Positions 19,689 through 59,800 are shown, counted from the stretch's first letter. The stretch is 64,000 nt of DNA from Leptospiraceae bacterium (GCA_024233835.1 JACKPC010000001.1:1541442-1605441), one strand, 5' to 3'. Made by a program: numbers and translations. The notes: generated by a model not told the origin, from the sequence alone.

Positions 19689-19804
19689 ACAGTCCATATC
19701 ATAGTAATGAAACAGTCCGTATCATAGTAATAGAACAGTTCGTATTATAGTAATGAAACGGTTCGTATTATAGTAATGAAACGGTCTGTATCATAGTAAT
19801 AATA
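19689..19804. repeat. tandem array, 5 copies of a 23-24-bp unit (consensus ACAGTYCGTATCATAGTAATGAA) plus a degenerate sixth
   Basis: Seen directly: units at 19689-19711, 19712-19735, 19736-19758, 19759-19781, 19782-19804. Confidence 0.8.
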
Positions 19805-42089: not shown

Positions 42090-43871
42090 TTATACTCCAA
42101 AAACGAGTTTGATTTCTTTTTCATATTCTTCTAAAGCATTCATATCTTCTGAAATGGTACGAATGGTTTTAAATTCGACTTCTTCGATTTTTCCATCAAT
42201 TTTCATGGCTTCGATCAGGTGTTTGATAATCGATGTTTTTTTTGCAGAAGGTGCCGTTTTGAATTTTTCCAATAAACCTTCCATTTCCCTTAAAAATAGT
42301 TCTGTATCATTTTTTTCTAATAGATCGGATATTCTATCCAGGAAGTATTTATTGTGCCCGAACTTTCTGCAGGAGGAATTTAAGAATTCACTCTCTTCTT
42401 TAGAAAAATCATCATCCGCAAAAGAAACAAATAAAGCACCGATTACCATCACAAGGTAGTATTCTCCTTCTTCCTTTTCATTTCCTTTAGAATTGAGAAG
42501 TCTCTCTTTGTTTAAAGCGTCTAAGGGAATTAACTTTGAAAGATTCTGGTTTATGGTATTTTTTTTATATTTTGCTTTTATATTTGTATCCGTAAAAAAC
42601 ATCCGCGTGTTATAAAAATATTCCAGGGCTTTGGCACGAAATACTTCTAAGGGATGAGTTCTCAAAACATCTGAAATTTCAAAATAGGAGCCGGTTTCCA
42701 ATAAGTTGTTTGCCTGGTTCAAATAGTCATCAATTACATAAGAACCAAATTTATCTACATTTCCGGCTGATAGTTTCATAATGGCCTGTACACTGGCCTG
42801 AAAGTTTTTACTGGCAAATAACCCCAGTCTATCCGCATTTAGCTCCTGGATCTGGCTGATTAACATTGAAAACTTTAAAAGTTCAAAGCCTTCTTCTGAT
42901 TGAATAATTCGTATTTCGTCTTCGCTGCGTTCACTTTCATATTGAGGATTAAACATGCGTAAAATGTAATTGTGTAAGAAACTCTGATTATGATTGAATA
43001 CATAGTGTCCGAACTCATGACCGATAATAGTCTTGATTTCATCTTCATCATCTACCAGGTTTAAAATATTATCGGCAAAGCCTAAAATAATCTCTTTCTT
43101 ATCTGAGATAATAAAGGCATTTTCTCCCATGCCTTCTTTGGTTTTAAAAACTTTTATATTGGCTTCTATTTCAAATAGATTTTTTACTTCTTCGATAATC
43201 GAAAAAAGTTTTTCATGGTTTTTTGCATTTAACTCTACCGAGGTTTTCAAGAAATGTTTTAGGGCTGAAGTATAGCCACTCTCTCCGTATTTACTCTGAG
43301 AGTTTTGTTTCAATTTATCTGCCAGTGGAAGTTTTTCCAACTCTGTTTTTAGTTTGTCCTCTTCTATAAGTTTTAGCTCCTGAAGTTTTTTACTACAGTC
43401 AGTACGGGAAAAGTTTTTAACTTTAGGGGGTTTTATATTCAGAGGAGAACTGATTTTTATTTCAACATTCAATTTCTCTTCTGTTTTTATGGCCGCGGAT
43501 GTAGCTATGTCACCCGGAGAACTTTCTCTTCCCGAAGAAAGCTCTTCTCTCGTGTACTGTTTGGGATTTTCTTGTGGAGTAATTTTTTCAAATCGATAGG
43601 GAAAAAGTTCTCTGAATTTTTTATAAGCAAACTCTTTACCTTTAAGCATCGCAGAATCCGGGTCACTTCCCATTACCCGGGTATATAAGCGCAGCATGGA
43701 ATAGCCAATACCGGAAAGGATAAGGAGAGTCAAAAACAATAGAGTGAAACCGGAAGCCTGTTTGCCTTTTTGTATTTCATCAATAGCAACACTGAAGAGG
43801 AGGAAGCTAAAGATTGCTATAACAACAGAAACCGCAATAAAAATGTATTTGAATAACTTTTTTAAAAACAT
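42090..43871 (-). CDS. M48-family zinc metallopeptidase with N-terminal TM and extra C-terminal domain
   Basis: HEXXH (IIGHEFGHYVFNH) with a downstream E. 593 aa. Confidence 0.7.
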   Translation of the reverse strand: MFLKKLFKYIFIAVSVVIAIFSFLLFSVAIDEIQKGKQASGFTLLFLTLLILSGIGYSMLRLYTRVMGSDPDSAMLKGKEFAYKKFRELFPYRFEKITPQENPKQYTREELSSGRESSPGDIATSAAIKTEEKLNVEIKISSPLNIKPPKVKNFSRTDCSKKLQELKLIEEDKLKTELEKLPLADKLKQNSQSKYGESGYTSALKHFLKTSVELNAKNHEKLFSIIEEVKNLFEIEANIKVFKTKEGMGENAFIISDKKEIILGFADNILNLVDDEDEIKTIIGHEFGHYVFNHNQSFLHNYILRMFNPQYESERSEDEIRIIQSEEGFELLKFSMLISQIQELNADRLGLFASKNFQASVQAIMKLSAGNVDKFGSYVIDDYLNQANNLLETGSYFEISDVLRTHPLEVFRAKALEYFYNTRMFFTDTNIKAKYKKNTINQNLSKLIPLDALNKERLLNSKGNEKEEGEYYLVMVIGALFVSFADDDFSKEESEFLNSSCRKFGHNKYFLDRISDLLEKNDTELFLREMEGLLEKFKTAPSAKKTSIIKHLIEAMKIDGKIEEVEFKTIRTISEDMNALEEYEKEIKLVFGV

Positions 43872-43907
43872 ATAGAACTCCTTTTTTAGATTATAAAATC
43901 AATATAA

Positions 43908-46900
43908 TTAAGCCACATCAGCATTTCCATTTATCGCATCGATTATTTTCACGACTTTTATAGCATCTTCCCTATTGGGAAAAACTCCGGATAGACCTCC
44001 ATCATTTATGTCGATGAAGGGAGACTCGTTTAGTACTCTTTTTTCTAATGTACCATTTTTTGCCAGATAGTTGATAATCGTTTTCACAAAAGTCATCTGA
44101 TCACCTCTCAGGTTTCCGGCCTGTAAAAATTCGGCAAAGGCCTGATTCAGGGCTTCTGTTTCCAAACCGGTGATACTGCGAATGAAAACTCCTAAAGGCC
44201 TTTCACCGTATTCCTGAACAAATTGCTCTTTACTTCCTGCTACATCATCTGTAAAAAGTATTCTTTCCAGAGCATTTATGTCGTGCTCTGTGATAGATTC
44301 ATTATGCCGGAGTTTATAGATTGTGATGTGGTCTTTGTTATTTCGAATATAGCTTTCTACCCTGTCTTTATAGGATTGCAGGCTGGTATAAATATCTAAG
44401 GGATATTTTTCATCTATTCTTGTTGTATCTAATTTGTCTTTAAAGTTTGTATAGATTGGTTCCTGCTTTTCCGGGTCCAAATATTTTATCAAACTTCGGA
44501 TGGATTTTCTAAGTTCTTCCAGACTGTGCACATGAGCCTTTTGCCAGTAAGCATCGGTTTGGACGGATTGAATAAGTTCTATTTGCTTTGCTATCTGGGG
44601 TATATTGGCTTTTTTTTCCAGCTCTTTTGCCAGTCCTGCGATTTTATTTGTGTATTGGCTGAGACTATTTGTTTCCAGTAAGTAAAGCATACTGCTATGT
44701 ACCAATACATCAAATCTTCTGGCTTTATCATCATCGCCTTTTTGCGGAGGTTCTAAATGGGAAAGATGTTCACTGATGATTGACAGGTCTAATTTGTTTA
44801 GGTTTAACCATTTTTCTTTATAGCTGTATTCTTTCACATATCTCCATTGCTTTTGCACGATAAAGCGATCCTCGTCCAGAGTCGATATGATGTGCTGTAG
44901 TTCCTTTGCATAAAGTTCCTTGATTTGCTTCTCTTCTTCCGTGGTTTCTGTCTTCTGGTTGATAATTACCAGGACTCTGGCTTTGGCCTCAAATATTTGT
45001 TGCTGTAACGATTTTACATTTTTGCTGATATAGCCTTCCGGCTTTGCTTCAAAAAATTCAAAGTTTTCACAATAATCGAAAATAAGAAATTCTTTCTTAT
45101 GAACACCCGGAGCAAATAAATCAGGACAGAGCCTTGTGCCCCTGCCTATCATCTGCCAGAACTTGGTGACGCTGCGTACCAGTTTGAAAAAGACCAGATT
45201 TACCACTCGCGGTGCATCTACACCGGTATCCATCATATCTACGGATACGGCGATTTGTGGATCTTTTTCACTGTGTTCATCACTAAATTTTTCTACGAGA
45301 TCTTCTGCTTTCTCTATGTAGTTGTCAATTACCTGTAAAAACTTGTTGCTGTATTCCGGATAGTTCTTTTCAAATCGTTTCTTGATGAACTCGGCATGGT
45401 TATGGTTTTTAGCAAAGATAATCGTCTTCCCGATTTTATCTCCACCCTCGACCTTTATCCCGTCTTTCATCAGATGTTCAAGAACTTTGTCTACCGTATC
45501 CTGATTGAATAACCAGTTATTTAATGCTTCGCTGCTAATGCTGTCCGGTGCTTCTTCGTTTGATGGGTCGCCGAACTTCTCTTCATATTCCTGTTTTTCT
45601 TTTTCGGATAGCTCGTGGTATTTAATGCCTTCTCTCTGGAATTTCAAGGGAACACTGTAGGCTTTGGCTGGCACCAAATATTTGTCTTTGACGGCTGCGT
45701 CTAATTCGTAGGCGAAGGTAGGGTTGTCATCTTCGATTTGGAAGAGGGAATAGGTATTTTTATCAAAGTCTTTTTTGGGTGTAGCAGTAAGTCCTAATAG
45801 TAAAGAATCAAAATATTCAAAGATGGCTTTATACTTCTGATAGACCGACCTGTGGGTTTCATCAATAATGATGAGATCAAAATGTCCTACTCCGAAATAA
45901 CGCTTATTGTCTATTCTCGTGTGGTCGATTTGATTCATCATCGTTGGATAAGTAGAAAAAACAAGTCTTGCTTCCAAATTGACCTTATCCCTGGTTAGAT
46001 CAATGGAAGACAATTCGGGTAAATGATTATTAAACGCTTTTTTCGCCTGGGTGACAAGGGCGTTTCTGTCAGCTAAGAATAAGACTCTTTTCACCCAATT
46101 GCATTTGAATAACATATCTACAATGGCGGCTGCCGTCCGGGTTTTGCCGCTTCCGGTCGCCATTACCAGCAGGGCTTCTCTTTTAAAGCCTTTGAGATTT
46201 CCCTTCCTGTCGCTTATCACATAGGCTTCGGCAACTCTTCGCAGGGCTTCTAACTGATAGGGTCTATTGATAATATTATGATTTACTGAAAAGTTTCGCA
46301 GGTCTTTTTTATCCAGACGTCTGTCTATGAGAAGTTGTAGTTCATCCTGTGTATAAAAGCCCTGGGTTTGTCTTTCGCTATAGAAAGTATCATCATAGAG
46401 ATAGGTTTCAAAACCATTGGTATAGAAGATAATCGGTCTCTGTCCGTGCATCTTTTCCAGACAGTCGGCATAGAGTTCAGCCTGATGTCTGCCGGATTCT
46501 GCATGTAGCATGGTTCGTTTGGCTTCGATGACAGCAAGAGGTTTGCCGTCCTTTCCCCAGAGAACATAGTCCGCATAGCCCGTGCCGGAAGGGTTTACGC
46601 TTTTAGGCAAGCCCGTTACTTTATATTCCAGATCCTTTCCCTTTTGCAAATGCTCCCAGCCTGCATCCCGAAGGAGGAGGTCGATAAAACGCTCGCGTGT
46701 TTCTTTTTCGGTTACAAGAACGGGAACCACCTGCATCGGGTCGGTTTCTTTGTTTCTTTCTTCTCTTCTGTCTGCGATTTCTTGTTTTAGTCTTTCTAAT
46801 TCCCTGCGTAAAGACTCATTTTCCCTTGCCTGCTCCTGTTGTTTTTTGCGCTCTTCGGCTTCTTTTGCCTGAAGTTGTTCTTTTTCCTGTTCTAAAGCTT

Positions 46901-47354
46901 TGAGCTTTTTGAGAGTTTCCTGTTCCTTCTTGCCATCGGGAATGTGGGAGAGAGAAAACGCGGGTGGCCTGGTTTTTTGCAGAGAGTAGCAAAAATGAAA
47001 AGCACCTAAGAATCGAAATAGGTTTTTGACAGAGACAATGGAATGTTCTTCGGTGATGCTACTGCCGTGGGCCGCGGAATTTCCATAACGGCGGATAAGT
47101 TCAATTTCCCGGGAGAGCCTGGCCGGGCGGATGATTTCTTGAAAATTGGCATCGAAAATAAGAGCGGAAAGATTGTCGGAATAGGGCCTGGTGAGTTTCT
47201 TGTCATGGTCATACATCCAGTTGACAGCCAGCTCCAGGGCACTACGGGCAAGAATGGCACTGGCTTTGGGCGAAAGGAGCGCAAGTCTTTCGGCTTCTTT
47301 TGCCTCAGCAAAAATTGTGGGCCAGGCGGATTGGAGAAAAACAAAGTTCGACAT
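43908..47354 (-). CDS. hsdR: Type I restriction enzyme R subunit HsdR (start chosen at MSNFVF…; ORF track extends to 47474)
   Basis: N-terminal MSNFVFLQSAW consensus and PD-(D/E)xK (…DYVLW…VIEAKRT). Helicase motif I MATGSGKT and motif II IIIDETHR. TGAnATG coupling to the hsdS stop. Confidence 0.85.
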   Translation of the reverse strand: MSNFVFLQSAWPTIFAEAKEAERLALLSPKASAILARSALELAVNWMYDHDKKLTRPYSDNLSALIFDANFQEIIRPARLSREIELIRRYGNSAAHGSSITEEHSIVSVKNLFRFLGAFHFCYSLQKTRPPAFSLSHIPDGKKEQETLKKLKALEQEKEQLQAKEAEERKKQQEQARENESLRRELERLKQEIADRREERNKETDPMQVVPVLVTEKETRERFIDLLLRDAGWEHLQKGKDLEYKVTGLPKSVNPSGTGYADYVLWGKDGKPLAVIEAKRTMLHAESGRHQAELYADCLEKMHGQRPIIFYTNGFETYLYDDTFYSERQTQGFYTQDELQLLIDRRLDKKDLRNFSVNHNIINRPYQLEALRRVAEAYVISDRKGNLKGFKREALLVMATGSGKTRTAAAIVDMLFKCNWVKRVLFLADRNALVTQAKKAFNNHLPELSSIDLTRDKVNLEARLVFSTYPTMMNQIDHTRIDNKRYFGVGHFDLIIIDETHRSVYQKYKAIFEYFDSLLLGLTATPKKDFDKNTYSLFQIEDDNPTFAYELDAAVKDKYLVPAKAYSVPLKFQREGIKYHELSEKEKQEYEEKFGDPSNEEAPDSISSEALNNWLFNQDTVDKVLEHLMKDGIKVEGGDKIGKTIIFAKNHNHAEFIKKRFEKNYPEYSNKFLQVIDNYIEKAEDLVEKFSDEHSEKDPQIAVSVDMMDTGVDAPRVVNLVFFKLVRSVTKFWQMIGRGTRLCPDLFAPGVHKKEFLIFDYCENFEFFEAKPEGYISKNVKSLQQQIFEAKARVLVIINQKTETTEEEKQIKELYAKELQHIISTLDEDRFIVQKQWRYVKEYSYKEKWLNLNKLDLSIISEHLSHLEPPQKGDDDKARRFDVLVHSSMLYLLETNSLSQYTNKIAGLAKELEKKANIPQIAKQIELIQSVQTDAYWQKAHVHSLEELRKSIRSLIKYLDPEKQEPIYTNFKDKLDTTRIDEKYPLDIYTSLQSYKDRVESYIRNNKDHITIYKLRHNESITEHDINALERILFTDDVAGSKEQFVQEYGERPLGVFIRSITGLETEALNQAFAEFLQAGNLRGDQMTFVKTIINYLAKNGTLEKRVLNESPFIDINDGGLSGVFPNREDAIKVVKIIDAINGNADVA

Positions 47355-47355
47355 A

Positions 47356-48513
47356 TCAGGTAAGTTCTCCTTTGAAGGCTTTTTGCAAGAGACAGTTAAA
47401 TAGATCATCGGCTTTTTGAAGGGAAGCCTCCGCATTTGCTTTCTGGGATTCAATTTCTTGAATCCGTTCCGCAAATTGGTTTTGAAGCTCGATGGGTGGG
47501 AGAGGGTAGTCCAAGTCTCTTAAAATTGCTAAGTTAATATTTTTTTGTGCAGATTCAGGTGCAGTTTCTTCGAGAATTTTTTGTAAAAATGACATCCAAA
47601 AATGAGCGTAAATATTATTAGTATTTTCATTTGGAATAAATCCAACAACACTATCAGGAAAACATGCATTAAAAGTTAATATTCCAGTTTTAGCAATATT
47701 AGCTGCAATAGTAATACATAAAGTTCCTGAAGGCCATTTTTTACTTTGTGCTAATCCTATATCTGAATAAGTCGAATCATAAGTTTTTACAAATATTCCA
47801 CTATTTGCTATATCTCCTGTCTGAATTAAGGGATGGGATCCTCCAAGTAGTTCAGGGGCATTTCTTGGTCTATGCTTTGATTTTCCTCTATCCAGTTTCC
47901 CCACTTCTGAAAACTTTACAACCTCCCAGCCTTTGGGGTTCACAACCGGGTCGCCGAACATGTCTAAGAATAGGCTCTGGGCCAGCTCGTCGTATTTGGT
48001 GAGAAGTGCTTTGGTCTTCTGCCGGAACTCATCCGCCGCATCCAGTATCGCCGCGATTTTCTTTTGTTCATCGAGGGGCGGCAGGGGGATTTTGATATCT
48101 TTCAAATATTTAAAATGTCGATTGTATCCAGTATCTGGAATATTTAATTGAGATAAAAAATAATAAATATATTTTGTGTAATTGTTTCTTTCTTTATCTT
48201 GTAATACCTTAACACCATCAGCACCCATAACAAATTTAAAATCTATATATTTGAAAATTCTTGTATGGTCTCCAAAAATTATATAAGGAGGTTCTGATTT
48301 TACTATTTTTTTTTCATCAGAAAGGTAACCTGCAATCTTATTTTTACCTTGATCAATAATAGGAATCTTTCCAGAACTTTCAAACTTTGATTTAGGTATT
48401 TTAAAATTGCCAGCAGAATTATCTTCTAAAACTTCTTCAAAATTTTTAATAACCCATGTTTTTGGTAGTTTACGTAATGTACTTAAATTCTGTACCAAAC
48501 TAAAATCTTTCAT
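47356..48513 (-). CDS. hsdS: Type I R-M specificity subunit HsdS (start moved to MKDFSL… with GGGAGG SD)
   Basis: Two TRDs separated and followed by conserved coiled-coil repeats (LPPLDEQKKIAAILD…, PLPPIELQNQFAERIQ…). The ORF-track N-terminus (MQCVSTGLQCVSTG) is just a REP element read through. Confidence 0.85.
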   Translation of the reverse strand: MKDFSLVQNLSTLRKLPKTWVIKNFEEVLEDNSAGNFKIPKSKFESSGKIPIIDQGKNKIAGYLSDEKKIVKSEPPYIIFGDHTRIFKYIDFKFVMGADGVKVLQDKERNNYTKYIYYFLSQLNIPDTGYNRHFKYLKDIKIPLPPLDEQKKIAAILDAADEFRQKTKALLTKYDELAQSLFLDMFGDPVVNPKGWEVVKFSEVGKLDRGKSKHRPRNAPELLGGSHPLIQTGDIANSGIFVKTYDSTYSDIGLAQSKKWPSGTLCITIAANIAKTGILTFNACFPDSVVGFIPNENTNNIYAHFWMSFLQKILEETAPESAQKNINLAILRDLDYPLPPIELQNQFAERIQEIESQKANAEASLQKADDLFNCLLQKAFKGELT

Positions 48514-48591
48514 TTCATACCTCCCGTTGTTTGAACAGGATTTTTGGATTTCCATCGTGGGTGGAATTGTGGTATTTGAATGGTTGGTTTT

Positions 48592-48647
48592 TCCGGTAGA
48601 TACGCATTGCAACCCGGTAGATACGCATTGCAATGCGTATCTACCGG
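48592..48647. repeat. REP-like element: direct duplication of CCGGTAGATACGCATTGCAA followed by its inverted copy, forming a ~36-bp perfect hairpin
   Basis: Seen directly. Located between hsdS and the RAYT gene. Confidence 0.65.
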
Positions 48648-48686
48648 GTTGAACCGATTGTGGTTGTTTATTTGCATATTATCTTC

Positions 48687-49388
48687 CTATAATTCCTTTT
48701 TGTTTGTGTTTGCAGGATTATCCCGGATATACCGACGCACATTTTCCAGTTCCCGTTGGCTGCGGATAATGCGGTCATAAAACCGGGATTGCCATTGGAA
48801 ATTTGGGTTTATGGTTTCATGAATCCGTCGCGTGGATTTGGATTTAAACCCCCGGATGATATTGGATATATTTTGAATGTACATATATGAATAATGATGG
48901 ATGGTATCAATCCCCGTAGGGACGCATTGCAATGCGTCCCTACGGGACAATGCGTCCCTACGGGGCAATGAATCCCCACGGGGCAATGAATCCCCACGGG
49001 GCAATGAATCCCCACGGGGCAATGAATCCCTACGGGGCAATGAATCCCCACGGGGCAATGAATCCCCACGGGGCAATGAATCCCCACGGGGCAATGAATC
49101 CCCACGACGGGGGCGGGGATAATCAATTTGGATGATGCCGTGGATATGATCCGGCATGATGATAAATTCGTCCAGATATACATTGGGTCGCATGATAATG
49201 GTTCTGTACCATTCCTCGTGGATGATTTGTCCGATGGTGGATAATATCATTTGATGATTAAAAATATTACCCAAATAGGGTTCGCGGTTCTTCGTGCAAA
49301 TGGTGATAAAATAATACCCCGGATGGGAATAATCCCAATTTTTTAACCTTGCTGATTCGACGCGGTATTTATTATTGTATAAGGTCAT
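48687..49388 (-). CDS. REP-associated tyrosine transposase (RAYT, IS200/IS605-like Y1 HUH transposase) with internal repeat expansion
   Basis: HUH motif (MPDHIHGII). Catalytic Tyr motif (WQSRFYDRII) and C-terminal …YIRDNP. Between them an in-frame (RGDSLP)n insertion encoded by REP-derived 18-bp repeats. Confidence 0.75.
   Translation of the reverse strand: MTLYNNKYRVESARLKNWDYSHPGYYFITICTKNREPYLGNIFNHQMILSTIGQIIHEEWYRTIIMRPNVYLDEFIIMPDHIHGIIQIDYPRPRRGDSLPRGDSLPRGDSLPRGDSLPRRDSLPRGDSLPRGDSLPRGDSLPRRDALSRRDALQCVPTGIDTIHHYSYMYIQNISNIIRGFKSKSTRRIHETINPNFQWQSRFYDRIIRSQRELENVRRYIRDNPANTNKKEL
48911..49108. repeat. REP-like 35-bp hairpin (CCCCGTAGGGACGCATTGCAATGCGTCCCTACGGG) followed by 8 tandem 18-bp units (CAATGAATCCCCACGGGG)
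   Basis: Seen directly. Lies inside the RAYT ORF and keeps all six frames open across the region. Confidence 0.85.
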
Positions 49389-49416
49389 TTGATTTACCTA
49401 TAATTCCTATATCAGT

Positions 49417-49872
49417 TTAGCCCTTTTTCTTTTTCAATTCCATTAGAATTTTAAGGTCCCATTTGTCCTGCTCTCTTTCTGTTTGCTTACTTTTAATTAA
49501 AGAATCCAGACCCAAATATGGAATTTCTAATTTATCTAATTCTAAAATACATACATCTTTCATTGCATCATCGTAAGTTAAAGACCAGGCACTGAGCAAA
49601 ATGTCTAACTCGGGTTCATCATATATTTTAATCACAATATTCTCTAAAAAGTCTTCAACTGTAACTTTTTCTAAATGAGGATATAATTCCTCGATACAGG
49701 AAATCACATTTTGAATGTTCTTTCTGTCGTTTTGAATTAACACGTCAATATCTTCTGTGGCGCGTACATACCCATGAAAAGAACAGGCTCTTGCACCCAC
49801 AATTACAAACTTAACATCATGCTTCTTTAGCAAAAAACAAACTCTTTGGATCTCATTCATAATGTTCCACAT
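49417..49872 (-). CDS. nucleotidyltransferase-fold protein (MNT-like), paralog of 50295-50837
   Basis: G-A…R-x-T-E-DIDVLI (GS/x…DxD) Pol-beta NTase-like motif. 151 aa. Confidence 0.5.
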   Translation of the reverse strand: MWNIMNEIQRVCFLLKKHDVKFVIVGARACSFHGYVRATEDIDVLIQNDRKNIQNVISCIEELYPHLEKVTVEDFLENIVIKIYDEPELDILLSAWSLTYDDAMKDVCILELDKLEIPYLGLDSLIKSKQTEREQDKWDLKILMELKKKKG

Positions 49873-50038
49873 ACCTTTTGAGAGAGAATAGGTAATGTTC
49901 CTCCCAGGTACGAAATTTAAAAATCTTTCCTTTCTTCTTTTGAATGGGAGAATTCTTTTTTAATTCAGCAATCAATTTTTCCTGAACTTCGAGATTCTCC
50001 AGGGCTGTTCTTTCTTTCTTATTGCCGATGATTTTCAT
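49853..50038 (-). CDS. small hypothetical protein (61 aa)
   Basis: ORF in a tight operon (20-nt overlap with the downstream gene). Confidence 0.3.
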   Translation of the reverse strand: MKIIGNKKERTALENLEVQEKLIAELKKNSPIQKKKGKIFKFRTWEEHYLFSLKRYVEHYE

Positions 50039-50050
50039 AAGTTTTCCATC

Positions 50051-50302
50051 TCACTTTTTCTCTAAGTTCCGAAGATGCTGGATGAACTTCTCTTTTTCTT
50101 CTTCAGAAAAATCATTACCGTAATACCTCAGAAAAAGACGGATTTTGATTTCTGTTTTGCTGAGCCCCGGTGGAAAAGAAGCCAATACAATTTTTCTTGC
50201 TGCTGTGCAACTGGCAAACCCCAGCTTCATCCTTTCTTCACCGGTAAGTTTCGCATAACGTTCTCTTAGCATCTGACGTATTTCGGGTGAGGTATCATCC
50301 AT
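50051..50302 (-). CDS. small hypothetical protein (83 aa)
   Basis: ORF. 8-nt overlap with the upstream NTase-like gene. Confidence 0.35.
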   Translation of the reverse strand: MDDTSPEIRQMLRERYAKLTGEERMKLGFASCTAARKIVLASFPPGLSKTEIKIRLFLRYYGNDFSEEEKEKFIQHLRNLEKK

Positions 50303-50837
50303 TTTCTAACTCCTGTAAAAGTTCATAAACTCCGAGTTCTTTACTATATTCATTCACATAGGCTTTATCAAAATTAGAAGAGAGAAGGTTTATTAAGTCC
50401 CGTTTTTGCATTTCGGATTGAGATTTTTTCATCCAATCTAATTTGGAAAGTATTAAGTCTTCCTTACTAACCATAAACGTTTCAAAATCTTCTATTACTA
50501 CTTTAACCCTTCTTTCAAACTCTAATCGTCTATAAGCTGTTTTTTTACGCAGGATGAAGTCTATTTTGATAATACTTTCATTGTGAATGATATTGAACAT
50601 TTTATTATTCTCAATAGCCAATTTGATAGCATCAGGATCAATATAATATACTTCAGAAAAAATTTTCTCAAGTATAGTAATATCTTCCTGCTGTAAATAA
50701 ACTACTATATCAATATCTCTGGTCATTCTCGGTTCAATATAAAAGTTCATTGCCATAGAGCCTGTAACCATAAATGGAATTTGATTCTCTATAAGTTTGT
50801 TAGAAACATCTTTTAATATTTTAATATCATCACTCAT
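50295..50837 (-). CDS. nucleotidyltransferase-fold protein (MNT-like), paralog of 49417-49872
   Basis: GSMAMNFYIEPRMTRDIDIVV motif. Shared C-terminal …Q-x-ER/KRD…DL…L segment with the 151-aa paralog. Confidence 0.5.
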   Translation of the reverse strand: MSDDIKILKDVSNKLIENQIPFMVTGSMAMNFYIEPRMTRDIDIVVYLQQEDITILEKIFSEVYYIDPDAIKLAIENNKMFNIIHNESIIKIDFILRKKTAYRRLEFERRVKVVIEDFETFMVSKEDLILSKLDWMKKSQSEMQKRDLINLLSSNFDKAYVNEYSKELGVYELLQELENG

Positions 50838-50849
50838 TCTCTAAGTTCC

Positions 50850-52328
50850 TCACTTCAAAAGCTTTTTCAAGACCTTCAATGTCTCATTTCGTTCTTTATC
50901 AAAGGCTTCGATTTCAGCAATGATTTCGGATGGTGGAGCATAGCTTTCTTCCTCGTATTCAACTTCTCTGTAGCGATTAATTGATAGGTCCCAGCCATTG
51001 GCCTCGTTTATTTCTTTTTTGGGAACTAAGAAACTCTTATCTGTCCGTTTACGTTTCTTCTCCTTAGGTAAATTAGAAAAACGTTGTATAATATCCGGAA
51101 TGTCATTATCTTTAATAGGATTACGCTTATCGTCCAAACTGTAACCATCCGCCTGCATATCATAAAACCAGATATTTTCTGTACCTCCGGTCCCGGTTTT
51201 GGTAAAATAGAGAATAGCTGTACTTACACCGGCATAGGGTTTAAACACGCCACTCGGCATAGAAATCACCGCATCGAGTTTTTGATTTTCCACAAGCTCT
51301 TTACGGATTTGCTTATGTGCTGTGGAACTTCCGAAAAGAACACCATCCGGTACTATCACAGAAGCTCTTCCACCCACTTTTAACATACGTAAAATCAATC
51401 CTAAGAATAATAACTCAGTTTTTTTAGATTTAACAATCGTTAAAATGGAGCCTTCAATTCCATCATAGTCCACACTGCCCTTGAAAGGAGGATTGGCCAG
51501 AATCAAAGTAAATTTGTCTCTATACTGTTTTGCATTTTCACTGAGTGAGTCCATTTTTTTTAGATCGGGATTTTCTATTCCGTGCAGGACCATATTCATC
51601 GCACCAATGCGAATCATGGTATCATCAAACTCAAGGCCATGAAACATGGTATCACTAAAATGCTTTCTAAACTTTTTATCATGAAACCAATCTTTATGAT
51701 TGTCCCGAAAATATTCACCGGCATTTACTAAGAATCCGGAGGTACCGGCTGCCGGGTCACAAATGATGTCCTCTCTTTTTGGTTCTACGATATCTACCAT
51801 CAGACGGATAATATGGCGTGGAGTGCGGAACTGTCCGTTTCTTCCGGCAGAAGCAATTTTGGAAAGCATATACTCATACAAATCACCCTTGGTATCCCGG
51901 TCTTTCATGTCGATTTTATCGATGAGTTGCACGACCTGATCCAGAAGTCTCGGAGTTGAAATGACAAAGGTTGCCCGTCCCATAAATTCGGCAAATGCTC
52001 CACCGGATTTACCCACCTGTTTCATGTGCTCAAAAACGGAAAGATTATCTACAGAGGATTTTGTGAAAAGTTCAAACATGGCTTCCGGGTCTTTATTTTT
52101 AAATGAATGCCAGCGAAGATTTTTTTGCTTGCTGGAGAATATTTTTACTTCCCGTGGAATGCCTAAGAGAACAGAATTTTCTTCATCGGCTAATTGGATT
52201 TCATCAATTCTGCGTAGAAAAAGGAGGTAGGTAAACTGCTCAATGACAGTTAAAGCATTGGTGATACCTCCCCAGGCAAAAGCCTCCCAGATTCTATCAA
52301 CTTGTGATTTTAATTCCCCTGTAATCAT
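50850..52328 (-). CDS. hsdM: Type I R-M N6-adenine methyltransferase HsdM
   Basis: N-terminal HsdM_N (…ELKSQVDRIWEAFAWGGITNALTVIEQFTYLLFLRR). Motif I DPAAGTSGFL. Motif IV NPPF. Confidence 0.9.
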   Translation of the reverse strand: MITGELKSQVDRIWEAFAWGGITNALTVIEQFTYLLFLRRIDEIQLADEENSVLLGIPREVKIFSSKQKNLRWHSFKNKDPEAMFELFTKSSVDNLSVFEHMKQVGKSGGAFAEFMGRATFVISTPRLLDQVVQLIDKIDMKDRDTKGDLYEYMLSKIASAGRNGQFRTPRHIIRLMVDIVEPKREDIICDPAAGTSGFLVNAGEYFRDNHKDWFHDKKFRKHFSDTMFHGLEFDDTMIRIGAMNMVLHGIENPDLKKMDSLSENAKQYRDKFTLILANPPFKGSVDYDGIEGSILTIVKSKKTELLFLGLILRMLKVGGRASVIVPDGVLFGSSTAHKQIRKELVENQKLDAVISMPSGVFKPYAGVSTAILYFTKTGTGGTENIWFYDMQADGYSLDDKRNPIKDNDIPDIIQRFSNLPKEKKRKRTDKSFLVPKKEINEANGWDLSINRYREVEYEEESYAPPSEIIAEIEAFDKERNETLKVLKKLLK

Positions 52329-52525
52329 GAATATATCCTTAAAAAATCTTCAAACTTCCGGTGGCCGTAAGCCTTCATTTTCTTCGGTGCCTGCGGATTT
52401 CATTTTTTATTTGCCATAAAAATAACTAAAACTAAATAAGTTTGGATTGCAACAAATAAATGAGAACAGAATCGAAAATAATAAACACTATTACAACGTA
52501 TCTCCTCATTTTTTCCGGGCAAATG

Positions 52526-52549
52526 CAAGCGACCCACCGATGGTCGCTT
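52526..52549. repeat. hairpin AAGCGACC-(CACCGAT)-GGTCGCTT, third member of the GCGAMCCACCGRTGGTYCGC palindrome family
   Basis: Seen directly, in the hsdM upstream/divergent region. Confidence 0.4.
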
Positions 52550-52709
52550 TCTGAAGACATTCTCCCTGAGCCGGATACTTTAATCTCCAGTTTGGATGGA
52601 AAGTGGATATTTTCCCTACTTTTTTAAACTTTTTTTAGAAGACCCTGTTCCATTTTGCATTTTTCAAACCTTTATATATAGAGCCTTAAAAAAAATCAAA
52701 GGAAGAACT

Positions 52710-53447
52710 ATGAAACGAAAATTGCTAAGCTATCTGTCTTTTTCAGTCTTACTCATTCTTTTCCTGAACTGTAGTAAATTAAAAAAGGAGAATCACAGTC
52801 TTTTGGAAATACTCCTGAGTATTCAATCTCAGTCGGAGGAAAATGCGGGGAGTTTTAATAAAAACCAAAGGGTTCCTGTTGAAAGTGATACGGATATAGA
52901 CATAGAAAAATTGGAAGACAATTCTCTGTTGTATTCCTTTGAGCTGATAGGAGGAAAAAAATATCTCTTTGAAGTATTAACAGATTCTAAATTACCCTAT
53001 AAACTTCATATTTATTTCGGAAGAGAGAAGTTGAGTTCCTATGAAAATCTATACTCCCGGAAGGCTTTTTCTTTTACCGCGAATCAGACAGGGACATACC
53101 AGCTCGGTCTTAAGTCTTCGGAAGACCCCTCGTCTTTGTGGAAACTTCTTCTTGTTTCGAAAGCCGCTCAGGGTGGAGGAATCTGTATGGATGCAGAAAC
53201 AGGAAGCTGTATGAGTTTTTCTAAAGAAACCTCAAATGAGTATAACCGCGGAGAATGTGTCTCTGATAATAATAAGAATCAATACAGCTATTATCATAAT
53301 TGCCCTGAATCGGGACGGGTAGGTTCCTGTACTTACTTTGCAGAATCCGGTCTTCGTACATGGGTATATTATAATACTTTGTATAATCGAGAAGCTGCAA
53401 GTCTTCACTGTGATAAGCAGAGTAGCGGAATTAATATTTTTCAATAA
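52710..53447 (+). CDS. lipoprotein, Cys-rich C-terminal domain (start at MKRKLL…, lipobox LFLNC)
   Basis: SD AAAGGAAG. Signal peptide plus lipobox. 8 Cys in the C-terminal 100 aa. Confidence 0.5.
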   Translation: MKRKLLSYLSFSVLLILFLNCSKLKKENHSLLEILLSIQSQSEENAGSFNKNQRVPVESDTDIDIEKLEDNSLLYSFELIGGKKYLFEVLTDSKLPYKLHIYFGREKLSSYENLYSRKAFSFTANQTGTYQLGLKSSEDPSSLWKLLLVSKAAQGGGICMDAETGSCMSFSKETSNEYNRGECVSDNNKNQYSYYHNCPESGRVGSCTYFAESGLRTWVYYNTLYNREAASLHCDKQSSGINIFQ

Positions 53448-53456
53448 GGATTAAAA

Positions 53457-53897
53457 ATGAAACGAATACTTTGTAAAATACTCATCACGTTTGGTCTGTT
53501 CCTAATCGGAACAGAAATTTTAGCCGGAGAACATAAGCTGACAATTCCGGCTTTGGGACTTGATACTTTTGCAGCTTATTCCATGCAGGAAAACTCTCTT
53601 GAGATGGAAGAAATCGGATTGAAGTTTCTCATGGAAATAGATACTTTCCGAATTTTATCTATTGGTCGGGATAAGATTCAAAAGAAGAGTGAATTCCATT
53701 TGAAAGGTTTATTTATATTCGGTTTAAATTCTTCTTCAAAACAAAAATATAAGCTTCTTTCCAAAGAGAATATGGATTCCTTTGAAATAGTTAGAAGCAC
53801 TGGAAATCTTTTGCTTTTTAAGCAGCCTCTTTATTTTCAAGTAAGAGAAATACGGCATATTTATCTTCAGATTCGTAATAAAGGAGAATCTGTATGA
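53457..53897 (+). CDS. hypothetical secreted protein (146 aa)
   Basis: Signal peptide. ATGA overlap with the giant gene start. Confidence 0.4.
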   Translation: MKRILCKILITFGLFLIGTEILAGEHKLTIPALGLDTFAAYSMQENSLEMEEIGLKFLMEIDTFRILSIGRDKIQKKSEFHLKGLFIFGLNSSSKQKYKLLSKENMDSFEIVRSTGNLLLFKQPLYFQVREIRHIYLQIRNKGESV

Positions 53898-56800
53898 AGT
53901 ATTTAGTTTATATTATATATTTATTCTGGAATATTGGAATGTTCGCTTATGACTTACCCGGACTTAGATATACCAAACCGGATATTATAAATGAAGTAAA
54001 GCCTCATATCGAAAGAGCGAATCTGGAAGAGAATGAAGTAGCCTGGAAAGAAAGTATGGAGACAGCAAAAACAAAACTATTTGAAAACTGGAATCAGGAC
54101 CTGGAAGGGGAAATTCAACAGATACTTTCCTCTATTCCTTCAACCGAAACCGGGATGGAAACAGAAATTTATACTTCGGAAATACTTAACTTTTTAAAAA
54201 TTCAAAAAGAAGCTTTATTGAAGCAATGGAACTCAGAAATGGAACAGTATATACTCGGGGAATTTTCTAACTTTTTAAATCTTCACACCGGAGGGGAAGA
54301 AGAAAAGGGAGAATCCTATGACCAGGAAGTTCTATCGATTGATGATTCTATAGCAAAAGAAATGCAGCCGGATACAGTTACGGAAGAATATTATCTAGGA
54401 AAAGATTACTGGGAAAAAAATGCAGCAGAACTTCTGGAAAGAAGAAAGAAATGGGAAGACGAATCTTTACAAACCATACAAAAAGGTATGGAGGAGTGGA
54501 ATCGACTGATAGGGGATTTGGAAACTGAAAAAGAAAAACAGGAAACCGGAATCGAAGAAAGGATTAATTATTGGAAGAATTATAAACTAAATTTGGAACT
54601 CTTACTTAAGAAGAATCGAGAAGACTTACAGGCCTATCTGGTAAATACAAGAAGTGAGATGAATCAGATGTTATCTACCGTTGATACAAATGAGGCTATA
54701 GTAGACAAGGAAGCCTTTAAGCAGTCTATCGGAAATTATTTGCAATTACAGGAAAGTCTGAATACAGCCTTAGCTTCCGGTGCTTCTCTGGAAGAGCTAT
54801 CTTTGCAAATATCAAAATATTACGATACAAAGAAATTAGAAGCTTCGAATAAAGCTGAATACTGGAAGGCTGAGAAAAGCATCACCGGAAAGATACATGA
54901 AGAAACGGTAAATTTTAATACAGATTTGGGTTATAGTAAAATCTATTGCGAAACGCTTCGAAGAGAAGGATTTGAAGATGCCTGTCCTTTCGGAACAGTT
55001 GATTCTCCCACATATAAGGCTATGAGCATGACAGAAGATGGAACCATGCTTGGCTGGCATATGGATGCTTCCACAAAAGAACTGTATTTAGGAACGAGAT
55101 ATTATTACAATACAGACTCTTATAAAATACCTATATACGGGTATTATACAGAAGTTAATAATGGTTTCTCGGAAGAGATTCACGGGCCTGTATATGATGT
55201 CAGGTTTGATAATACCGGGTTTGATATGATAAAGTATCAGGAAAATATTAGAATATTAGGTATTATAAGAAAAACGGGAACTCAGGATCTCAGTCGTTTT
55301 CTGAATGGAAATATCAGGATAGACTCACAGTCCAGCCAACTAAAAGCTAAGGATCCGGGCAGTGGAGAGTGGAGATATTTTACCGAAGCAGGAACTCATT
55401 CTTCCGAATTCAAGTATTATGGAGAAAAGATAACTATGGACTGGCAGATTCCTGTTTCGACTGCAAATGTCCGAAATGATCTAATTATAGAAACCAATTA
55501 TTCTTATACAGATAGGAATGCAGAGGCGAATGAAACATTCTGGAATAATTTGTCGCAAAAGTATTCTTCCTATGCTGAGAACTTTCGCAACCTTTCTATA
55601 GCTTTAAGCGGTATAGAAAAGAAAGTTAGTGATTTCTTGAATATTTATGATTCCAGTCTGGAAAGTCTTACAAACTATAAAGCTGAAATTGCAGAGAGCA
55701 TGAACAAAGAGATTGCCGCTCAGGTGAAGGAAAGAGATATTTGGATTGAAGAAGTATATGGCTATACACTTGATGATTTTACAAATTCAGTCGGAGAAAA
55801 TGTAAATTCTGAATACAGACTGGGGCAAAAAGAATGGGAGGATGCCTTCCGAGCCTATAGAAGAAGAGAATTGACATGGTTGGAAGAAGCTGCAAAAGAA
55901 TTGGATAAGAAAGTCTACGGGCCGAATGAGAGTGAAACAAGTCTTTTAAGTAAAATTGAAACTTCTACAAAAAGCATGAAAGAAGATATTCTGGAATCTG
56001 AAGAAAGAGTGGAAGATCTAAAGCAGTATGCTGAAACACAGAGGGATTCTTTTTACTTTAAAAGTGCAAAGGAGCTAATTGAAGAAGCTGAACTTTTAAA
56101 AGAACAGGAACTTATAAGTAATCAAAAAGCCATGCACTTATCCGAAGAGGCTCTAAATTCAAGTATAAGGGCAGAAAACTATCTTCTTGCAGAGAAGGAT
56201 TCTTTGGTTCTTGCTTCATTGATTAAATCCGAATTTGGAGAAGAAGCTTCTGTTGTAGAGCCGGATATTGAGAGGTTTCAAACCGAACAAGTTTATTGGA
56301 AAAATGAAATAGAAGGAGCGGATGGAGGTTTTGCTTATAAAAAGCGTATTCGATTAGCAGAACTGGAATTACCTGTGCTAAAGCAGAACTCTCTGGATTT
56401 ACAAAAAGCGGAGAACTTACAGGCTCAGATGATTGAAAAAGAAAAGAAATCTTTTCTTGCCCTGAATGAGAAATATAAAAAGGCTGAATCCTATTATAGC
56501 TCCTACGAAAGTGAAAAAGCAAACGCTGAGCTGGAAAATGCTGAGTATTATTATCATTTAAGTATTCGAACCCGGGAAGAAGCCAGGGAGAGTTTTTATA
56601 AGGAATATAAAGAAAATCTTAAAGATGCAGAAACATCATTTAATGAAAGTAAATTGATATATTCCTATAGTGCTATGGAGAATTATCTCAAAAGAAAAAA
56701 ATCTTTATTAGAATATGATTATGCTATATTAATCGCTCAAGTAAAAGAAGATGCTTTCAAACAGGAATCTGATTTAAACTCAGAAATTAAAGACATTCTA

Positions 56801-59800
56801 TCGAAAAGCCGCATAAACAGAACAAGGCAACAAGAGAATTTACAGGATCTCGGAGCCTTATTGGAGCTTGCTAAAAGGCTTTCGACTTCGAGTATTCCTG
56901 AAATCATGAACTGGAAAGAAGAAGCTTTACAGCTAAGCTATAAAGGTCCTATGAATCTGAATCCCAAACGATTGGATGTTTCCAATCTTTCTTACCTGGA
57001 AGCGGAATATCGGAAGGGTATCTTACACTATAATGAACTGGAAAAGCATTCCTTTCTAACAGAAGAAGAAGTGCAGTCCATTAATAGCCTGTTTGCAGGT
57101 ATGAGTGAAAGCTTAAATAGTGCCGGTAATGAGTCGATTCGAAACTACACAAACTCAATTATGGAAAAGTTAATTAGCAAAGCTAAGAATCTTGGTTCCG
57201 GTTTGCAGGATAAACTGATTAAGGAGCTAAACTCGGATGTAAAGTATAAATATTTGCGGGATAAAGGATACGAGTTTCAAAAAGTATCCTCAGATATAAT
57301 TCGGATAGGGAAAAACATAAAAAATGGGGAGCTCAATGCCTATGGTTATGCCATGGAAGAAAATACCTATGGACCGCAGTATACCTATTTACAGTTTACG
57401 ATTCAGACCGAATACAGAGTCCCGGCTTTTTCTCTTGGGAATGCAGATTCTATATTTCGGGAAGAATTTAAAGCTCTTGAATTGCAGGGGAGCTTAGAAA
57501 GTATTCAAGAATATTATAATTCAGTGGAATCCGAAATCGCTCTTTTCTTTGATAAGGCTAAAGAAATTGAAGACGCCTATAAAGCTGAGGAATTGAATAT
57601 ACAAACTCTTGAAGATAACTACATTTCATTAAAAGATAGCTATGTAGAGAACTATCAGGGTCTTGAACCAGCTTATCGCACATCCTATGACGCAAGTATC
57701 TCTGACTTCAAGAAGAGCATGGAGAGCATGGAATATACTTTTTCCGGAAAACAGGGAAAACGTGTATTGAAGGGGAAAGCGAATGTGCCAACTCCTATCG
57801 GGGTCTTGCCTATGGATATAGTTTACGGAGAGCAGACTCTGGAATTACCTTCTGATTTTACATTAGCTGATTTAAAACGTTCTTATGAGTTAAGCGGTCA
57901 GGGGAGTTCGTATGTAGCGAACACGATTCAGGAATCCAATGACGATTTTTCAAAATACCTTAGAGAAAAGATAAACGCTTTACAGAAAGTTTATGAAGCG
58001 AATGAAAGAGACAAAGAAGAAAAAGGTTTTCTTTTTGATGTGCTGAGCGGAGCTGCCGGAAGTTCCGGGAGTGTGAAAAAGGCGATTCAAACTTCCTTGA
58101 AGAATGAAGTTCAGTCGAGAGTATCGGCTCAGATAGCAAAAGATTCCGGACTTCCCACCGAATTTGTCTCAGCTTTAATGGGAGGAAAGAAACCTCAGGA
58201 AGCAGCCAGGTCTTATGTTGAATCGAAGGCTAAAACTGAACTGGCAAAAGCTTTGAATCTTCCACCGGAATTGATGATGAGCTACCTGGAAAAGAACGGT
58301 GTGGTTAAGAAAAAAGATCCACTGCGTCAATATACAAATGCCGGTAGTGCTTTACTTGTAAGCGGTGCTGCCGGTCTTGTATTGGGGCCTTCTGCCGCTT
58401 TACTTCCCCTTGCAGTAGAGGTTTTAAATAGTACTGCTTCGAAAAGCTTAGGGAAAAATAACCCCTTAACTAAGGGCGTAAATTCCTATTCAAATTTTAT
58501 GGATAGAACAGTAAGAAATGATGTAAGTGATTTCTTATATAAGAACGATCAAATAATTGATACAACTGTAACAGTAGGGGCTCACGTAACTACTGCTATG
58601 GCCTATGGAACCGCAGCCGTGGGGACGGCTTTTGCCTGGACGGGTGTGGGAGCAGGGATTGCCGCCGGAGGAGTAAGTCTGGGGATGGCAGTAAGTTCAG
58701 GTTACGCGGCCTATAAGGCTGCTCGTGGAGCTGTATTTGGTGGAACAAAGGGAGCTCTGGCCGGTGTACTTACAGCCGGTGCTACTGTTAGCCAGGTTGT
58801 TGGTGTTACTTATGATGTTTCCTATACTTATGACGGAGGTTTTGCGGGAGGTTTAGGACTCAGTCTTCCGGGAACCGGAAGCTTCCTTAGTGCCGGAGTT
58901 CGATTTGGAGAGGGAAGGAAAGCTTCCTATAGATTGGGAGCTGAATACGGAGGACTGAATCTGGGTCTAAATATGGATGGACAGCAAATCCAGTCCGCCT
59001 CTTTATCTTATGGAACAAGAGTTAGTGATGTAAAAATGAATCTGGGCTATAATTGGTCAGCTACGAATGGAAATGGACTGGGATTGAGTCTTGGGAATGA
59101 AAACGTCAAGATAGGTATAGATCACAGCGAATATGGTGGCACTGATTTTTCTCTGGATGGAAGCTTGAAGCTGAACCCTTTATTAACTACAAATGCGGGT
59201 ATAAGCTGGAATACTAAGGGAAAATGGGGTGTTGATGCGTCTATTGAATATAAGGAACAGAGAAAGCGAGGGGAATACTCTGACATATTATCTAACGGAG
59301 AATTCGGTATTCACTATGATGGTAGAAATATAAGTGCTAATTTAGATCTTGCCGGTACCAACGCATTTCGATATGAAAATGGTACTGTAATCGGAAATAC
59401 AAATTTTGCCCAGGAATTTGGTAACGCTTATTTTAAGAAACGTACTCTTGAACAGATGGAAGTGGAAAGAGAAATAAAAGAAGAGGAAGAAAGAAGGCAG
59501 GAAGAAGAACGCAGGAAAGAGTCCAGACGTAATTTCTTGAATTCCCTGGGGATTGTTGAAGAGAAAGATGAAGATGAAACCGATACAGAAGAAGATAAAC
59601 TGGAAGAAGAAAAGCGTACTCTGTCTATTGTGTATATAAAAACTACTACAGAAGAAGCGGAAGATTATATTCAGGATCTGGAAAAGAGCGGGAAGTATAC
59701 GGCTGAAGAAATAGCTGATCTAAAGAACTCATTAAAAACAGCACAGAAAAGTTGGTCGGACAAAGATAAGAGAACTGAGATGTTAGAAGCCACTAAAAAC

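Follow-up and report, generated by a model that had tools for sequence, protein, structure and literature searches.

Does a RAYT (TnpAREP) gene that carries a REP palindrome and a long array of REP arms inside its own reading frame still encode an intact enzyme, and how were these sequences acquired? This question is raised by a locus in the 64-kb stretch of DNA analyzed here (the window). The first-pass annotation had offered two readings of it, a recent REP invasion that inactivates the RAYT or a tolerated linker expansion. The features of the locus and of its surroundings are collected in Table 1.

Table 1. Features at the RAYT locus and in its surroundings; positions are those of the window.
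Feature	Position	Strand	Basis
RAYT (TnpAREP) gene, Y1 HUH endonuclease, 233 aa	48687..49388	-	ORF, profile, alignment, model and fold matches
RAYT motifs: HUH, H81-I-H83; GTAG-guide strand, W199-Q200...R209; catalytic Y220 in YIRDNP			
Codons for the HUH strand PDHIHGIIQID, directly 5' of the array, at the upstream edge of the variable loop	49113..49145	-	
Tandem array, ten direct 18-nt copies of the left REP arm	48930..49109	-	TRF and codon-aligned reading
Intragenic "double-foot" REP, perfect palindrome CCCCGTAGGGACGCATTGCAATGCGTCCCTACGGG, read in frame as RRDALQCVPTG	48912..48946	.	
Flanking REP past the stop codon, perfect 42-nt palindrome CAACCCGGTAGATACGCATTGCAATGCGTATCTACCGGGTTG	48610..48651	.	
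Additional direct copy of the flanking REP's left arm (21-bp unit, two copies)	48593..48612	+	TRF 48593-48633, 2.0 copies, 100% matches
hsdM, type I restriction-modification (R-M) operon around the RAYT	50850-52328		
AbiEii-like nucleotidyltransferase (toxin-like); small ORFs also in the operon	50295-50837		
DUF6036 nucleotidyltransferase	49417-49872		
hsdS	47356-48513		
hsdR, followed by an M48 peptidase gene	43908-47474		

The identification of the gene as a RAYT was upheld by profile and fold matches. Pfam Y1_Tnp (PF01797) matched the ORF in two stretches (3.8e-9, 37.1 bits against a cutoff of 23). The NCBIfam model REP_Tyr_transpos (NF047646) gave 54 bits, under its 80-bit cutoff, because the loop splits the match into two stretches; this is an equivalog model built on proteobacterial-type RAYTs, and the score therefore concerns that narrow model and not the wider RAYT class. 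The only sequence match of the family profile in the PDB was 4ER8, the E. coli TnpAREP bound to REP. The same entry was the best Foldseek match of an AlphaFold2 model built with a 54-sequence alignment, followed by the TnpA of IS608 and ISDra2 (matches 2-24 were IS200/IS605 TnpA), and the top 30 matches were all TnpAREP or IS200/IS605 TnpA. The IS200/IS605 enzymes share the Y1 HUH fold and the recognition of single-strand hairpins with this RAYT. However, they are only about 125-155 aa long and lack the N-terminal KYRxxSxRL motif, and their hairpins are subterminal transposon ends and not GTAG-footed REPs. Membership in IS200/IS605 TnpA was rejected on the NCBIfam model transpos_IS200 (NF033573; 19.7 bits against a cutoff of 55) and on gene context, as no tnpB adjoins the RAYT and its neighbours are type I R-M and toxin-antitoxin-like genes. 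No second RAYT was found when all stop-free frames of the window were searched with a profile.

The segment WQSRFYDRII, previously read as the Tyr motif, proved to be another element of the protein. In the profile alignment to 4ER8, WQSRFYDRIIR fell on WQPRFWEHAIR and RYIRDNP on DYIYINP, which places W199, Q200 and R209 at E. coli W94, Q95 and R104, and D205 and R206 at E100 and H101. In the E. coli enzyme, W94, Q95 and R104 read the GTAG foot (PMC6006769). The segment was therefore reassigned to the guide-recognition strand, and the catalytic Tyr is Y220. All 15 invariant positions of the family and all 22 nearly invariant ones were kept. H81, H83 and Y220 lie in invariant columns, as do the Y, I, N224 and P225 of the Y motif, and the conserved N-terminal columns are represented by K7, Y8, R9, S12, R14, L15, D19 and Y20. 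The protein ends 8 residues past YIRDNP, without the conserved C-terminal extension. The distance from HuH to WQ is 118 aa. An expansion between HUH and Tyr had been noticed in the first-pass annotation (about 110 aa against a usual 60 or so, with WQSRFYDRII taken as the Tyr motif); HuH and Y220 are 139 aa apart, and the median among homologues is 88 aa.

The expansion is made of REP sequence. TRF reported a tandem repeat at 48929-49106 with a period of 18 bp, 9.9 copies, 95% matches and a score of 300, the top-scoring tandem repeat of the window. On the coding strand, a codon-aligned reading from 49109 to 48930 resolves the array into one 5'-degenerate copy (CGTCGTGGGGATTCATTG), CCCCGTGGGGATTCATTG (PRGDSL) six times, CCCCGTAGGGATTCATTG (PRRDSL) once and two true-arm copies, (C/T)CCCGTAGGGACGCATTG (RRDAL), at 48930-48965. 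The final true arm doubles as the left arm of the palindrome, and the array is followed by one complementary right arm, CAATGCGTCCCTACGGGG, at 48929-48912. The eight in-frame 18-bp copies described before correspond to the ATT-variant units (RGDSLP/RRDSLP) at 48966-49109; ten are counted when the two true arms are included. Derivation from a REP half-site was also supported, as the unit is identical to the REP arm at 15 of 18 positions. Each unit retains a GT[AG]G foot, at a spacing of 18 nt, and the array adds about 54 residues, rich in R, G, D, S, L and P, to the loop. The REP hairpin reported next to the array was found to be a perfect palindrome at 48912/13-48946, with arms of 17-18 nt (GTAG...CTAC), and folded as ssDNA it reached -19.6 kcal/mol (z = -8.4).

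Three additional stop-free ORFs run across the array, at 48809-49183 (-), 48901-49122 (+) and 48932-49135 (+). They are by-products of the 18-bp periodicity, as had been proposed. The RGD tripeptides were considered as an adhesion motif and dismissed, being a by-product of CGTGGGGAT read in the sole stop-free frames. The hexamer ATTGAT (Ile-Asp) occurs on the coding strand just before the array (49122-49127) and again just after the palindrome (48906-48911). The REP-derived tract is thus flanked by a 6-bp direct repeat, which may be due to chance.

A second REP, absent from the first-pass annotation, lies 36 nt 3' of the RAYT stop codon. It has a 16-nt core, ACGCATTGCAATGCGT, in common with the intragenic REP, and the differences in the stems are compensated (GATAC/GTATC versus GGGAC/GTCCC). 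As an ssDNA hairpin it was predicted at -23.1 kcal/mol (z = -10.1). The core was found twice in 64 kb against 0.01 expected, both times at the RAYT gene, and a chance origin of the two cores there is excluded. These two are the only REPs in the window. Group 4 RAYTs are common in Cyanobacteria, Chlorobia and Caldilineae, and their flanking 16-mers are only moderately abundant (Bertels et al., 2017; PMC5581495), with which two REPs in 64 kb are in agreement.

The RAYT and its flanking REP sit between hsdM and hsdS/hsdR, inside a type I R-M operon. The region 42090-52328, which holds the R-M genes, the AbiEii-like and DUF6036 genes, small ORFs and the RAYT, has a defence-island-like arrangement. 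An exact 12-bp direct repeat, CCTATAATTCCT, flanks the RAYT ORF at 48686-48697 and 49397-49408. The copy at 48686-48697 overlaps the stop codon, and the second precedes the ATG by 9 nt; the two are the only copies in 64 kb, against 0.02 expected. These repeats could be the edges of an inserted gene cassette of 711 bp. To our knowledge, target duplications are not known for Y1 transposases. A target-site duplication or cassette boundary was considered for CCTATAATTCCT, but a similar flanking repeat was not found as a feature of the family, the direct repeats at the other loci being short or REP arms. Elsewhere in the window, an unrelated tandem repeat at 19689-19800 has 4.9 copies of a 23-bp unit (ACAGTCCGTATCATAGTAATGAA), and a very long ORF of 2293 aa at 53894-60775 (+) lies downstream of ORFs 52596-53447 and 53457-53897, both without a Pfam match.

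In the AlphaFold2 model, the core was predicted with a pLDDT above 90 for 120 residues. Residues from about 90 to 170 were modelled as coil with a pLDDT of about 45-55, between the HUH strand 81-88 and the helix 174-192. The entire REP-encoded tract is therefore predicted to lie in a disordered surface loop beside the folded core and away from the active site. This agrees with the earlier placement of the tract between HUH and the C-terminal catalytic part, for which a check by modelling of the surface loop had been suggested.

A protein search yielded 1558 relatives, the best 120 of which were compared. These 120 proteins were 155-256 aa long, and nearly all of the length variation was in the β3/αC loop. 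The HuH-to-Y distance in 115 homologues ranged from 63 to 158 aa, and in only two of them was it as long as in this RAYT. Loop peptides such as VETHCNASLQ, RRDALQCVST, VETPNLGVST and RDAINRVST were present in 70 of the best 120 relatives, and the VET and RD peptides are translations of GTAGAGAC-core-GTCTCTAC palindromes.

For 72 genes, drawn from 80 genome loci, the DNA of the loops was compared as well. Most of the loci are from Bacteroidota, the others from Cyanobacteria and non-photosynthetic relatives of that phylum, Patescibacteria, Cloacimonadota, Ignavibacteria, Chloroflexota and Gammaproteobacteria. In 39 of the 72 genes the loop holds a perfect palindrome with GT[AG]G feet and arms no shorter than 9 nt. 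The cores of these palindromes varied among loci, with self-complementarity kept. Twenty of them were read in the VET frame and 19 in the RD frame, both of which are stop-free, and none in the TAG frame. Many of the homologues are also flanked by such palindromes (L014, L018, L024, L041, L060, L064, L074 and others), and the mean best arm identity of intragenic and flanking REPs was 0.95 within a locus and 0.69 between loci.

Tandem repeats of at least 2.5 copies were found in the loops of 23 of the 72 genes, with a period divisible by 3 in 22 of the 23. The repeat unit was a REP arm in L004 (18 bp, also with a GTGG foot), L018, L036, L025 and L045, and the arm duplicates stood on either side of the REP, depending on the homologue. 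Many other loop arrays were built of units unrelated to REP arms (GNGGG, HLQS, PPGGPPPP). The TRF score of the array studied here was the highest of the set, other arrays being 11 × 9 bp in L063 and 8.8 × 12 bp in L054; it is long but not unique in kind. A 179-bp unit repeated 5.2 times lies some 2 kb downstream of a RAYT homologue from Bacteroidales (L021, 12078-13001). With a GTAGAGACGCGATGCATCGCGTCTCTAC REP in every unit and 19-bp duplications of the arm ahead of it, this is a regular, BIME-like REP array.

The REP and the array differ in age. The closest relative found (P0001) is 49% identical overall, with the array as a gap. It has the core ACGCATTGCAATGCGT at the orthologous site, read in the same frame (RRDALQCVST), in a near-perfect palindrome extended to 60 nt, without a tandem array. 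Since core, site and frame are the same in P0001 and the feature is family-wide, the intragenic REP is, by these comparisons, inherited and not recently acquired. A very recent REP invasion that inactivates the RAYT was therefore rejected, given the orthologous REP of P0001 and the loop palindromes across phyla. The same (RGDSLP)n tract in relatives, with identical copy number, had been named in advance as the sign of an ancestral linker, but GDSLP was absent from all of the best 120 of 1558 homologues, and two consecutive array units had no match in JGI metagenomes. The RGDSLP expansion thus appears, on these comparisons, to be specific to this lineage. The exact RAYT protein was not in the protein cluster table.

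The class of the enzyme was assessed against the scheme of Quentin, Siguier, Chandler and Fichant (2018, BMC Genomics 19:475; PMC6006769), in which Y1 HuH proteins are split into subclasses. In this scheme, only subclass 2.4 has REPs placed in frame within tnpAREP, in the part between HuH and Y; it also has short repeats in a variable β3/αC insertion modelled as a peripheral loop. The REPs of this subclass include "double foot" forms with a 5' GT[AG]G and a 3' C[TC]AC. Its motifs are tabulated as NH[IFV]H, WQ and YIxNNP, with a median HuH-to-Y distance of 88 aa, and it ranges over Cyanobacteria, Bacteroidetes and various phyla and corresponds to group 4 of Bertels et al. (PMC6006769). The RAYT studied here shares with subclass 2.4 the WQ, the YIxxNP catalytic motif, the conserved N-terminal motif, the missing C-terminal extension, the variable β3/αC insertion with short loop repeats, and long double-foot REPs (GT[AG]G...C[TC]AC) both flanking the gene and in frame within it. 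The published distance equals the median of the homologues of this RAYT. Their taxa are likewise mainly Bacteroidota and Cyanobacteria with scattered other phyla, and homologues from Cyanobacteria and Bacteroidota were found with E values of 1e-27 to 1e-48.

Four differences were noted. The RAYT has DHIH in place of the consensus NH[IFV]H and YIRDNP in place of YIxNNP (D for the first N). Its ten REP-arm units, with the extra residues that they encode, are at the long extreme of the family, and the RGDSLP unit was present in none of the 120 closest homologues. DH[IFV]H was found in many close homologues, and DHIH looks like within-family variation. Apart from the two motif substitutions, the RAYT has the features of subclass 2.4 that were compared, and it is on these features that it is assigned to the subclass. 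The case is therefore less unusual than first proposed, as in-frame REPs and short loop repeats are already a published hallmark of subclass 2.4 (PMC6006769). A REP in the loop of its own transposase is a known phenomenon; here the arm array is unusually long and the locus is otherwise ordinary.

Taken as a whole, the locus is very probably an intact TnpAREP/RAYT of subclass 2.4 (Bertels group 4) arranged as a small REPtron, with an inherited REP, one arm of which was expanded to ten copies, most likely by slippage, and a probably functional enzyme. The tolerated linker expansion proposed at first pass fits these data, with family residues kept, a disordered loop and a preserved frame. An unlikely alternative is that the array is a disabling lesion and the RAYT a decaying, pseudogene-like relic, impaired through the loop, the mRNA structure or both, whose frame is open only since 18-bp units cannot bring stops. 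Few homologues have so long a HuH-to-Y distance, the mRNA was predicted to be strongly structured (-118 kcal/mol over 246 nt, z = -3.8), and the NCBIfam REP_Tyr_transpos score is under the cutoff. Moreover, the periodic tract is open in all frames, so that being in frame is weak evidence within it. However, the roughly 175 codons outside the repeat are intact and every invariant and nearly invariant residue is kept. Loops longer than this one exist, up to 158 aa from HuH to Y, and the loop is predicted to be disordered beside the folded core and is peripheral in the published model (PMC6006769). Judged from the conserved residues and the structural model, the RAYT is probably still functional.

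For the preferred reading, an intact enzyme with a slippage-expanded arm, the following course can be proposed. The gene carries a cognate double-foot REP in frame in the β3/αC loop, with a second REP of that family just past the stop codon. In this lineage one REP arm was copied head-to-tail ten times, most likely by hairpin-promoted or slipped-strand replication slippage, with the single right arm able to pair with any of the ten left arms. We infer slippage because of this pairing and because arm duplications also occur at extragenic REPs. Selection would purge frame-breaking or stop-containing outcomes, so that stop-free units of 18 nt, or six codons, survive. The enzyme would tolerate the additional disordered residues. 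It probably binds single-stranded REP hairpins through the WQ...R strand and cleaves and joins with Y220.

It is very unlikely that the RAYT itself made the array, by cutting ssDNA at one GT[AG]G foot after another and rejoining it, with the internal REP as a functional cis site for autoregulation or self-processing. Every unit does keep its foot at the regular spacing, the intragenic REP follows the flanking REPs of its locus in sequence, and arm duplications recur beside REPs both inside and outside genes. In addition, cleavage by E. coli TnpAREP occurs at GTAG-footed REPs or close to them, and the enzyme was proposed to give rise to REP dimers and arrays (Di Nocera et al., 2013; PMC3733652). 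However, the many homologue arrays of non-REP units fit generic slippage in an unconstrained loop, the arm is duplicated on either side of the REP in different homologues, and the cleavage site here is only putative. From the sequences compared, slippage and enzyme-mediated duplication cannot be told apart.

The 28-nt REP GTAGGGACGCATTGCAATGCGTCCCTAC was found in identical form in 15 unrelated metagenome contigs (L082-L096) with a G+C content of 34-55%. This REP seems to be common to very different genomes. No RAYT was found in the fetched DNA of the 15 contigs, and most copies lay outside long ORFs. Duplicated arms beside the extragenic REP were seen in L085, L088 and L092. The contig L082 is a whole-contig palindrome of 1718 bp centred on the REP, and L083, L086, L090, L091 and L094 are similar fold-backs or end at the REP. 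Such fold-back contigs are assembly artefacts, hairpins being able to break or chimerise short-read assemblies. These contigs show the 28-nt REP to be dispersed in other genomes and say nothing on the REP family of this genome.

The fold-back contigs raise the question of whether the copy number, or the whole tract, could itself be an artefact of short-read metagenome assembly at a hairpin or repeat, which we regard as extremely improbable. The copy number comes from a single short-read-style assembly, and the sole other contig encoding the RAYT (ENA, L081) is identical to window positions 45288-57201 and so gives no independent support. However, variant units cap perfect periodicity at about 72 bp, below the k of 141 to which the contig name points. 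The tract is also in frame and flanked by collinear conserved coding sequence, and comparable arrays occur in many independent genomes, long-read chromosomes included.

Two other known systems were compared. The E. coli TnpAREP (PDB 4ER8; Messing et al., 2012), a member of subclass 2.2, resembles the RAYT in fold, HUH motif, WQxRF(W/Y)(E/D) guide strand and YIxxNP helix, and in its association with GTAG-footed REP hairpins. However, it is 165 aa long, its HUH strand is followed by a short loop and its coding sequence lacks a REP, the structural alignment gave about 17% identity, and E. coli REPs are imperfect, bulged hairpins with a single foot. GTAG REPs and in-frame REP insertions in unrelated genes were described by Di Nocera et al. 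(PMC3733652). These GTAG/CGTC insertions and the Rickettsia palindromic elements are likewise in-frame palindromes tolerated within coding genes. They often occur as dimers or in groups and lengthen the protein by 20-30 or more residues, presumably at permissive loops. The hosts of the GTAG/CGTC insertions are unrelated genes (uvrA, recB, tRNA synthetases) and their sites are mostly not conserved, whereas here the REP sits in the gene of its own transposase, at a site conserved throughout the subclass.

For annotation, the gene is to be recorded as an intact TnpAREP/RAYT of subclass 2.4 and not as a disrupted transposase, with little significance beyond that. The locus may serve as a test substrate for the effect of the loop and the internal hairpin on RAYT activity or expression, and for slippage versus enzyme-driven duplication. 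A quite improbable but more far-reaching idea is that the ten GT[AG]G-footed arm copies are footprints of a RAYT cutting and rejoining its own gene on ssDNA, with the conserved REP as a functional cis element, for example for autoregulation by an enzyme that binds the hairpin of its own coding DNA or mRNA. If this were true, the loop of subclass 2.4 enzymes would be actively remodelled and tuned by the enzymes themselves. As it stands, the locus offers a clean and extreme example of the published and mechanistically unexplained in-frame REPs of this subclass, with their recurrent in-frame arm expansion.
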